A stretch of 32,000 nt of DNA from an uncultured Actinomycetes bacterium. GTDB taxonomy: Bacteria > Actinomycetota > Actinomycetes > S36-B12 > CAIYMF01. Below the pieces are notes generated by a model, which was given only the letters and a program-made list of their open reading frames with translations, made no database searches and had not been told where the DNA came from. Of the stretch, positions 12,339-15,109 are shown piece by piece; positions within the stretch are counted from its first letter, which is position 1, and each line of letters starts with the position of its first letter. The position numbers and the translations under genes were made by a program. The DNA is taken from the NCBI GenBank assembly GCA_963843975.1, contig CAWJMG010000003.1, forward strand, positions 1,230,001 through 1,262,000, in the 5' to 3' direction.

Positions 12339-15109
12339 ATGGACACACCCGTGGCACCCGGACGCGATCGCGAGCCCCTGCTGGCCGGCGGTCTCCCCAC
12401 CCAGTACGTCGACGTCGACCCGGACGAGACCGGCGAGTGGATCGAGTCGTTCGACTCGGTCGTCGACAACGCCGGCCCCTACCGCGCGCGCTACCTCATG
12501 CTGTCGCTGCTGCGCGCGGGCCGCCGAGCAGAACGTCGGAGTGCCGAGCCTGCGCTCGCACCGACTACATCAACACGATCCCGCCCGAGCGCGAGCCGTG
12601 GTTCCCCGGTGACGAGGACGATCGAGCACCGCATCCGCGCAGTACGTGCGCTGGAACGCCGCGATCATGGTGCACCGCGCCCAGCGCCCCGGCGTCGGCG
12701 TCGGCGGCCACATCTCGACGTACGCCTCGACCGCGTCGCTGTACGAGGTGGGCTTCAACCACTTCTTCCGCGGCAAGGACCACCCCGGCGGCGGCGACCA
12801 GATCTTCTTCCAGGGCCACGCCTCGCCCGGCATGTACGCCCGCGCGTTCCTCGAGGGCCGCCTGTCGACCGACCAGCTCGACGGCTTCCGCCAGGAGCTC
12901 GTCGCACCCCGGCGGGCGGCGCTGTCGTCCTACCCGCACCCGCGGCTGATGCCCGACGTTCTGGGAGTTCCCGACCGTCTCGATGGGCCTCGGCCCGCTG
13001 AACGCGATCTACCAGGCGCGGTTCAACAAGTACCTGCACGGACCGCGGCATCAAGGACACCTCCGACCAGCACGTGTGGGCGTTCCTCGGCGACGGCGAG
13101 ATGGACGAGCCCGAGAGCCGCGGCGCGCTGCAGCATCGCGGCGCCGCGAGGAGCTCGACAACCTCACCTTCGTCGTCAACTGCAACCTGCAGCGCCTCGA
13201 CGGCCCGGTGCGCGGCAACGGCAAGATCATCCAGGAGCTCGGAGTCGTTCTTCCGCGGTGCCGGCTGGAACGTCATCAAGGTCGTCTGGGGCCGCGAGTG
13301 GGACGAGCTGCTGCGCGGCCGACCGCGACGGCGCGCTCGTCAACCTGATGAACACGCACGCCCGACGGCGACTTCCAGACCTACAAGGCCGAGGACGGCG
13401 CCTTCGTCCGCGAGCACTTCTTCGGCCGCGACCCGCGCACCCGCAAGCTGGTCGAGGACTGGACCGACGAGCGAGATCTGGGCCTGCAGCCGCGGCGGCC
13501 ACGACTACCGCAAGATGTACGCCGCCTACCGCGCGGCCACCGAGCACAAGGGCCAGCCGACGGTCATCCTGGCCAAGACCATCAAGGGCTGGACCCTCGG
13601 CAACCACTTCGAGGGCCGCAACGCCACGCACCAGATGAAGAAGCTGACCCTCGAGGACCTCAAGGGATTCCGCGACACGGCTGCAGATCCCGCATCGCGG
13701 ACGACCAGCTCGGACGCGTACCTGCCGCCGTACTACCACCCCGGCACGGACCACGAGCACATCCAGTACATGCTCGAGCGGCGTCGGGCGCTCGGCGGCG
13801 GCGTGCCCGAGCGGCGCGTCGTCGGCCAAGCCGCTCGATGCTGCCCGGCGACAAGGTCTACGACGCCGTCAACCGCGGCTCGGGCAAGCAGGCGGTCGCC
13901 ACCACGATGGCGTTCGTGCGGCTGCTCAAGGACCTGCATGCGCGACCCGGAGATCGGCCAGCGCATCGTGCCGATCATCCCGGACGAGGCCCGCACGTTC
14001 GGCATGGACTCGCTGTTCCCGACGGCGAAGATCTACTCCCCGCACGGCCAGACCTACACCTCGGTCGACCGCGAGCTGATGCTGGCGTACAAGGAGTCGA
14101 CGACCGGCCAGATCCTGCACGAGGGCATCAACGAGGCCGGCTCCGTCGCGTCGTTCACCGCCGTCGGGTACGTCGTACGCCACGCACGGCGAGCCGATGA
14201 TCCCGATCTACATCTTCTACTCGATGTTCGGCTTCCAGCGCACCGGCGACGCCTTCTGGGCGGCGATGGACCAGATGGCGCGCGGCTTCGTGCTCGGCGC
14301 CACCGCCGGTCGCACGACGCTCAACGGCGAGGGCCTGCAGCACGAGGACGGGCACTCGCCCGCTCCTCGCCGCCACCAACCCGGCGGTCGTGGCCTACGA
14401 CCCGGCGTTCGGCTACGAGCTCGGCCACATCGTCAAGGACGGCCTGCGCCGGATGTACGGCGAGACCCCGGAGGACGTCTTCTACTACCTGACGCTCTAC
14501 AACGAGCCGTACGTGCAGCCTGCCGAGCCCGAGGGCGTCGACGTCGACGGCATCGTCCGCGGCATGTACCTCCTCGCGCCTGCCGGCGAGGGCGAGGGCC
14601 CGCGCGCCCAGGTGCTCGCCTCCGGTGTCGCGGTCCCGTGGGCCCTCGAGGCCCAGCGCATCCTGCGCGAGGAGTGGGGCGTGCACGCCGACGTCTGGTC
14701 GGTCACCTCGTGGACCGAGCTGCGCCGTGACGGCCTCGCCGCCGACCGGCACAACCTGCTCGACCCGACGGGCGAGCAGCGCACCGCGTACGTCACGCAG
14801 CGCCTCGCCGGCCGTCCCGGCCCGGTCGTCGCGGTGTCCGACTACATCCGCGAGCTGCAGGACATGATCCGCAGCTGGGTGCCGTCCGACTACGCCACGC
14901 TCGGCACCGACGGCTGGGGCATGTCCGACACCCGAGGGGCTCTGCGCCGCCACTTCCTCGTGGACGCAGAGAGCATCGTCGTGCGCACGCTCGCCTCCCT
15001 CGCCGCCCGCGGCGAGTACGGCCGCGAGCAGGTGGCCGAGGCCATCGCGCGCTACCACCTCACCGACCCGAGCAAGGCCGACGCCGGCAACACCGAGGGC
15101 GCGGGCTGA
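12339..15109 (+). pseudogene. aceE: pyruvate dehydrogenase E1 component (homodimeric AceE type), reading frame interrupted by about 23 single-base insertions
   Basis: AceE-like segments occur in all three + frames. Examples: [145 protein letters not shown]. The C-terminal 239 aa are intact to the TGA at 15107-15109. The segments join into one E1 sequence only by skipping one base at each junction. Confidence 0.85.

Follow-up and report, generated by a model that had tools for sequence, protein, structure and literature searches.

We analyzed a stretch of 32,000 nucleotides (nt) from an uncultured Actinomycetes bacterium (contig CAWJMG010000003.1, positions 1,230,001 to 1,262,000; hereafter the window, to which all coordinates below refer). 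Its aceE gene, deposited at 12339..15109 on the plus strand (2771 nt), and the neighboring pirin gene are interrupted by frameshifts. Comparison with related loci suggests that both genes are very probably intact in the organism, and that the 25 extra bases and the single missing base arose when the consensus of the contig was computed. The frameshifts most likely reflect the merging of non-identical homologous sequences, and appear not to be of biological origin. When the window aceE was aligned with 15 orthologs, the extra base was found to be the alternative allele of the adjoining alignment column at 21 of the 23 insertion sites scored. As a mutational process is blind to the alleles of other lineages, whereas a consensus drawn from two homologs is not, this allele pattern points to a merged consensus.

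The relatives used for comparison comprise 80 syntenic loci from one scan of species-representative genomes, all of them labeled as metagenome bins of Nanopelagicales or Actinomycetota, with L001 as the nearest. Closer relatives (L082-L086, JGI contigs) were reached via the clusters of three flanking window proteins; L083-L086 are approximately 95% and L082 approximately 91% identical to the window at the nucleotide level. These five loci have the gene order of the window, pirin included, with an intact AceE of 915 amino acids and an intact pirin of 259 amino acids. Full-length aceE orthologs initially numbered 61; after a scan of metagenome contigs 143 relatives allowed extraction of the gene, and allele frequencies were calculated over 145 relatives.

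Over 12339-15109, each of the three forward frames of the window encodes pieces of an AceE-like protein. The ortholog is 2748 nt long in L001, L082, L083, L084 and five other loci, and 2751-2754 nt long in four more distant ones. In a global DNA alignment the window gene is 93.3% identical to that of L001 and 23 nt longer. Indels were called from this alignment and then independently against L083, and both alignments agree on 24 single-base insertions and 1 single-base deletion (net +23). The insertions are located at about positions 12516, 12559, 12619, 12638, 12900/1, 12907, 12918, 12952, 13042/3, 13134, 13147, 13241, 13313, 13354, 13472, 13488, 13679, 13692/3, 13712, 13826/8, 13838, 13936/7, 14164, and 14363, and the deletion at 13483^13484. 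The 24 extra bases and the missing one thus fall within 1848 nt (12516..14363, plus strand), which we refer to as the damaged zone; here the insertions are spaced 80 nt apart on average (coefficient of variation 0.92). No indel falls within the initial 177 nt or the final 746 nt of the gene (P = 4e-5 under a uniform spread). Including the pirin base, insertions outnumber deletions 25:1 (P = 4e-7 if both are equally likely). In comparison with L083, coding indels within 9424-17131 are confined to the aceE events and one base in pirin (15364). Approximately 4.5 kb of compared flanking coding sequence contains 1 event, against 59 expected at the rate of the zone.

Most of this structure had been anticipated by an earlier reading made from the letters of the window without database searches (the sequence-only reading). 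It placed about 23 single-base insertions within a few bases of the positions found here, and its net shift of 23, the absence of stops in the stitched frame, the clean gene ends (given as about 180 and 750 nt) and the integrity of all flanking genes save pirin were borne out by the alignments. Its statement that there were insertions only, without deletions, is correct for the 24 insertions and misses one deletion, as it had read through the -1/+1 pair at 13483/13488. The extra bases, described there as almost all G or C, are indeed G or C in 19 of 24 cases (about 12 C, 7 G, 3-4 A, and 1-2 T). This is roughly the background composition and approximately the level expected by chance for a sequence of 73% G+C (72.7% for the window).

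Removal of the extra bases restores a gene of 2748 nt, encoding 915 amino acids without a single stop, and a product 94.4% identical to the AceE of L001. The corrected AceE scores 1419.6 bits on the NCBIfam model TIGR00759, well above the cut-off of 859.9, and belongs to this family, whereas the open reading frames (ORFs) as deposited score 260 (the ORF at 14390..15109), 320, and 31 bits. On TIGR03186, the model for the 2-oxoglutarate dehydrogenase exception, it scores 1142.9 bits and remains under the cut-off of 1408.3. The GDG...N motif, which we take to be the thiamine-diphosphate-binding motif, is readable in the corrected translation. As judged from this predicted product, the window aceE is a pyruvate dehydrogenase E1 of the homodimeric type.

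The disruption is part of the public record. On the NCBI/ENA contig of 2,758,296 bp, where three flanking proteins of the window were found by exact look-up, the gene call that replaces aceE is a 239-amino acid ORF (P0001; 14390..15109, plus strand). As this is the call of the record itself, the disruption is present in the deposited sequence and was not introduced into the window. The cluster of P0001 has only one member. For the pirin ORF and five fragments of frameshifted ORFs no exact match was present in the collection, a result of little weight given that their start codons were guessed.

The allele test that carries our interpretation was defined strictly: an insertion was counted if the extra base differed from its neighbor and was identical to an allele of the neighbor's column in the relatives. 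Both for this test and for the scoring of polymorphic columns, the relatives act as a proxy for the merged second sequence. Random placement of random bases resulted in 5.8 ± 2.1 matches, with none of 20,000 simulations reaching 21, and random insertions in the intact aceE of L083, aligned through the same MAFFT --add pipeline, gave 6.6 matches with a maximum of 11 (60 runs). When slots were limited to those touching third codon positions the expectation was 7.3, and when the observed positions were kept and only the base was randomized it was 11.6 ± 2.1. The signal was also present with the six closest relatives alone (6 allele matches against 1.2 expected, P = 0.001). The slots touch a third codon position at 20 of the 23 sites and adjoin a polymorphic column at 22 of the 23, with 39% of all columns being polymorphic. 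A preference for codon boundaries was considered as a separate signal and set aside, as it is marginal given the alignment ambiguity and is subsumed by the third-position and allele result. By the proxy of the relatives, both hallmarks of merged haplotypes were thus found, namely indels at nucleotides that differ between sequences and both alleles in tandem. Each extra allele is present in 28-113 of the 145 relatives; in single relatives at approximately 80-85% nucleotide identity, the number of the 23 extra alleles present reaches 16. No single donor was identified among the 145.

The pattern is most direct at four sites where the two nearest relatives are themselves split between the two alleles (here and below, extra bases are given in square brackets, and all sites are on the plus strand unless stated otherwise). 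At 12900..12901, where one base of CT[C/G] is extra, L001 and L082 have CTC and L083-L086 have CTG, and the window reads CTCG. At 13042..13043 (GG[A][C], one base extra) the codon is GGC in L001 and L082, GGA in L083-L086 and L002, and GGAC in the window. At 13692..13693 (CC[G][C], one base extra) it is CCG in L001, CCC in L082-L086, and CCGC in the window, and at 13936..13937 (CT[G][C]ATG, one base extra) CTG in L001, CTC in all others, and CTGC in the window.

At a further set of sites the alternative allele is a third-position variant of more distant relatives. The extra G at 12516 (CGC[G]CGG) adjoins the third position of an arginine codon, for which L010 and L013 have G and most relatives have C. 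The third position next to the extra C at 12619 (GA[C]G ATC) is G in the close relatives and C in L002, L003, L004, L008, and L021, and the codon at 12638 (extra C, CG[C]G CAG) is CGG in the close relatives and CGC in L002-L004, L008, and L021. Similarly, an extra G was found at 13241 (CTC[G]GAG; alleles CTC and, in L009, CTG) and at 13313 (CT[G]C; CTC in the close relatives, CTG in L009-L021), and an extra C at 13472 (GAG[C]GAG; alleles GAG and, in L002 and L004, GAC).

Elsewhere the variant concerns the start of a codon. Next to the extra C at 12559 (TCG[C]ACC), serine is encoded by TCG in the close relatives and by AGC in L002-L021. The extra C at 13134 (CAG[C]ATC) precedes a first codon position that is either A (ATC) or C (CTC/CTG/CTT) in the relatives, and the window reads CATC. 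At 13354 (extra A, AAC[A]CGC) the close relatives continue with the codon CGC and L009-L021 with AAC, and the window reads ACGC; at 13838 (extra A, CTCG[A]TGCTG) the alleles are GTG in the close relatives and AAG in L009-L021; and at 14363 (extra C, G[C]TC) they are GTC in the close relatives and CTC in L009-L021, with GCTC in the window.

Several sites are more complex. The multi-allelic stretch 12905..12920 contains two extra bases, for which different aligners give either 12907 and 12918 or 12916 and 12917. The sequence is CACCCCGGCGGGCGGCGCTG in the window, CACCCGTCGGGCTCGCTG in the close relatives, and CACCCCGGCGGCGGCCTG in L010, L013, and L021. At 12952 (ATGCC[C]GACGTTC) the window equals the union of CCGACGTTC of the close relatives and CCCGACTTC of L003, two alleles that differ by a compensating pair of indels. 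A compensating pair is also found in the window at 13483..13488, where a base is missing after 13483 and an A is extra at 13488, and the family motif W[S/A]L[R/Q]RGGHD is read as WACSRGGHD. The position of the extra base is ambiguous at 13144..13147 (one extra C, GCG[C]CGCGAG; alanine third position G, C, T, or A in the relatives) and at 14164..14170 (one extra base, either GGGT[A]CG, with TCG in most relatives and ACG in L009 and L013, or G[T]CG), and the exact base is ambiguous at 13823..13828 (one extra in the variable linker GTCGTCGGCCAAGCC). The extra G at 13679 (AC[G]GCTG) can be taken as the extension of a G-run or as ACG, found in most relatives, overlapping with the CGG of L002 and L004, and that at 13712 (CTC[G]GAC) adjoins a G, with G at that third position in L004 only.

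A consensus step acting on a mixed pileup could have produced this pattern. Within the portion of aceE that is better conserved, reads or read segments of a second, non-identical homolog would have been piled up together with those of the organism itself. A difference between the two sequences would then have been aligned as an insertion plus a deletion instead of a mismatch, and if the insertion was retained in the consensus but the deletion discarded, both alleles would be left side by side, resulting in an apparent +1 frameshift at each such site. The second homolog would most likely stem from a related actinobacterium in the same mixed sample, and less likely from a diverged second copy. 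We infer the mixed sample, the long noisy reads and the exact software step; the first of these because the relatives are all metagenome bins and the sole independent assembly found of the exact window sequence is a Logan contig of run ERR12037365 (L081, 1889 bp). This contig is 100% identical to window positions 15735-17623, outside aceE, and marks the run as one that contains the organism or its reads; no papers on the run accession were found in the literature. A further indirect hint is that the record is a single contig of 2.76 Mb. Segments of the damaged zone are mostly 84-91% identical to distant relatives (75% for one segment), against 78-84% at the clean ends of the gene, and a better-conserved zone is where foreign reads would be recruited.

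A precedent for such damage was reported by Korlach et al. (2017; PMC5632298), who found that haplotype merging by early FALCON assemblies resulted in indels at nucleotides differing between haplotypes and in broken gene predictions. Their case resembles the window in that the indels lie at nucleotides differing between the merged sequences, and here 21 of the 23 spell the other allele. It differs in that two haplotypes of a diploid bird genome were affected genome-wide, whereas here the damaged sequence is a bacterial contig that most probably stems from a mixed community, and the damage is limited to the conserved part of aceE and one site in pirin.

Several points weigh against a merged consensus. 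The interpretation draws on assembled sequence, from which the tandem bases are predicted to be absent from individual molecules. The second sequence was not recovered, and the case for its existence comes from alleles carried in other lineages. Over 12.5-14.4 kb, no separately assembled sequence of this strain was found; the best matches were 88% (an AceE fragment) and 89% (in the scan of metagenome contigs) identical. At a divergence of approximately 15%, just about one in ten of the differing sites would have become an insertion, which calls for a consensus step that lets minority insertions through only from time to time. Finally, two or three of the sites (12907, 13679, and 13712) read equally well as extensions of a run.

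Random read error is the alternative that fares best, though we consider it improbable. It holds that the extra bases are platform noise in a low-coverage, unpolished or single-pass patch, and it fits damage that is local and consists of insertions with Poisson-like spacing and a base composition close to background. Gene-breaking consensus indels are well documented for long reads: Sereika et al. (2022; PMC9262707) describe homopolymer indels in nanopore consensus sequences that shift reading frames and shorten gene calls. Public data also seem to contain many long contigs with a broken AceE call. However, noise cannot track the alleles of other lineages, and 21 matches at 23 sites against about 6 expected remain significant with the positions fixed. 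The homopolymer error known from nanopore, 454 and Ion Torrent data is similar to the present case in that single-base indels truncate gene calls in long-read genomes and metagenome bins, but it resides in homopolymers, includes deletions and is found genome-wide. In the window, the extra base touches an identical base at 7 of 23 sites, whereas 11.7 ± 2.4 are expected for random insertions; homopolymer-adjacent sites are thus rarer than chance, which is not the pattern of platform homopolymer indel error. Nor are the errors spread over the assembly as far as the window covers it, the flanks being clean, and the insertions are essentially without accompanying deletions or excess substitutions. 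The sequence-only reading had proposed a gap-fill over GC compressions or unpolished noisy reads as the cause, and neither agrees with the allele matches and the depletion of homopolymer sites.

A merging with a diverged aceE paralog, or with a duplicated segment of the same genome that was collapsed or cross-polished here, would leave an identical tandem-allele signature, and our inspection covered 32 kb of the 2.76-Mb contig. No second aceE was found in the window or on the contigs of the relatives, and the extra base in pirin would require a second copy of that gene as well. We regard this source as considerably less probable than read noise.

That the bases are real, in a very recent aceE pseudogene or as the product of a process that generates insertions, is very unlikely. 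The lesion does stand in the deposited record, and nothing at the level of reads contradicts it so far. Bacterial pseudogenes of reductive evolution, such as those of Mycobacterium leprae, are deletion-biased and show stop codons and relaxed constraint. The window aceE is similar to these as a housekeeping gene with many frameshifts, and unlike them in that none of these marks of decay was found. Substitutions on the window branch, polarized with five outgroups, have a non-synonymous to synonymous ratio of 13:19 in the damaged zone versus 14:20 outside, and the amino acid replacements are conservative. The 24 indels of the zone stand beside just 32 window-branch substitutions, which together with the 25:1 ratio and the clean gene ends makes for a poor fit to neutral decay. 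The flanks are clean, and every one of the 143 relatives that yielded the gene has an intact aceE, including all of the 61 first collected. A decaying pseudogene is therefore very unlikely, given the insertion excess, the absence of stops, the unrelaxed constraint and lesions that track the alleles of relatives. The sequence-only reading had named a mixture of deletions, stops and diverged segments as the sign of ordinary decay; the alignments show one deletion and no stops, and ordinary decay was not seen. Its preference for a local sequence-quality artifact over pseudogene decay is in line with the insertion excess, the absence of stops and the equal constraint inside and outside the zone, while the extraordinary insertion-only mutational footprint that it offered for the case of real bases appears effectively excluded by the allele pattern. 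Real bases would require that a single gene received a foreign allele next to its own at 20-odd sites, with no substitutions or deletions and with its neighbors left undamaged. We know of no mutational process that inserts the allele of another lineage beside the resident one.

Least probable of all, by a small step, is that the tandem alleles are real DNA, left when a diverged homologous aceE served as template for a burst of +1 insertions. One conceivable route would be aberrant heteroduplex processing after uptake of foreign DNA, with both bases left at each mismatch. If true, the burst would have killed a central-metabolism gene in one step. Programmed frameshifting and transcriptional slippage do not apply, as the approximately 24 sites lack a common motif and none is present in the 15 aligned orthologs.

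The tree signal changes along aceE. Over the damaged zone the window branches outside L001, L082, and L083, and over the 3' 740 nt of the gene (14364-15109) it groups with L082 and L083, with L001 as the outgroup. Recombination among lineages could account for this switch, as could an effect of the chimeric consensus. Agreement with the distant clade of L009, L010, L013, and L021 is more frequent for window-specific substitutions in the zone than for those specific to L001 or L083. We rejected this as evidence for chimerism at the level of substitutions: the outgroup position of the window in the zone gives the same result without chimerism, and the similarity to distant relatives is therefore not independent evidence.

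On the basis of the merged-consensus interpretation, the organism almost certainly possesses a functional pyruvate dehydrogenase E1 as well as a functional pirin, and the lesions carry no biological weight. The 239-amino acid stump of the record would nevertheless lead metabolic reconstructions or pseudogene counts to infer, wrongly, a loss of pyruvate dehydrogenase. The tandem-allele test works without reads and separates a merging artifact from platform noise and from true decay, and could serve for other conserved genes that appear frameshifted in metagenome bins with long contigs. Damage may preferentially affect conserved genes, because recruitment of foreign reads is likeliest there.

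Many public AceE products are only 400-530 amino acids long and are encoded on contigs of 95 kb to 3.5 Mb (for example P0143, P0144, P0156, P0255); one short AceE product, from a Microbacterium contig of 3.57 Mb, is listed as a "hypothetical protein". Broken aceE calls seem to be common in long-contig assemblies, and these could be screened for tandem alleles.

The pirin gene (15182-15960, minus strand) contains one extra base at 15364, which is an A on the plus strand (GAGCT[T]CCC on the coding strand) and shifts the last approximately 60 codons; the rest matches the intact 259-amino acid pirin of L082-L084. This base is probably an artifact of the same kind as those in aceE, though it lies 1 kb past the last aceE site. 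In the window (15106-16040) and in L082-L084, pirin is located between aceE and a gene for a PucR-type regulator, whereas L001 lacks pirin and has approximately 110 bp between aceE and the regulator (L001:4744-4854). On this comparison of gene order, pirin was gained or lost in a lineage-specific manner.

The intergenic region of aceE and pirin, which are convergent, contains a perfect 16-bp G+C-rich hairpin (15129-15163), with a predicted folding energy of -53 kcal/mol for 81 nt (z-score -6.6) and without a T tract. This hairpin is likely a bidirectional terminator, as judged from the predicted fold. A scan for promoter and terminator consensus sequences over 11.9-16.1 kb found nothing, the hairpin being missed because it has no T tract.

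The annotated gene order in the relatives is an AhpC-like peroxiredoxin gene, two small genes, aceE, the gene for the PucR-type regulator, fabD, and fatty-acid synthase II genes. This is presumably the same neighborhood as that of the AceE (Rv2241) locus of Mycobacterium tuberculosis, unlike which the window lineage has pirin between aceE and the regulator. A tRNA-Val gene (anticodon TAC) at 9468-9543 on the minus strand accounts for the ORF-free stretch upstream of the AhpC-like gene. On the plus strand, the FabD-like malonyltransferase ORF at 17328-18515 encodes 395 amino acids, approximately 90 more than a typical FabD, and this C-terminal extension is retained in cluster members of equal length.

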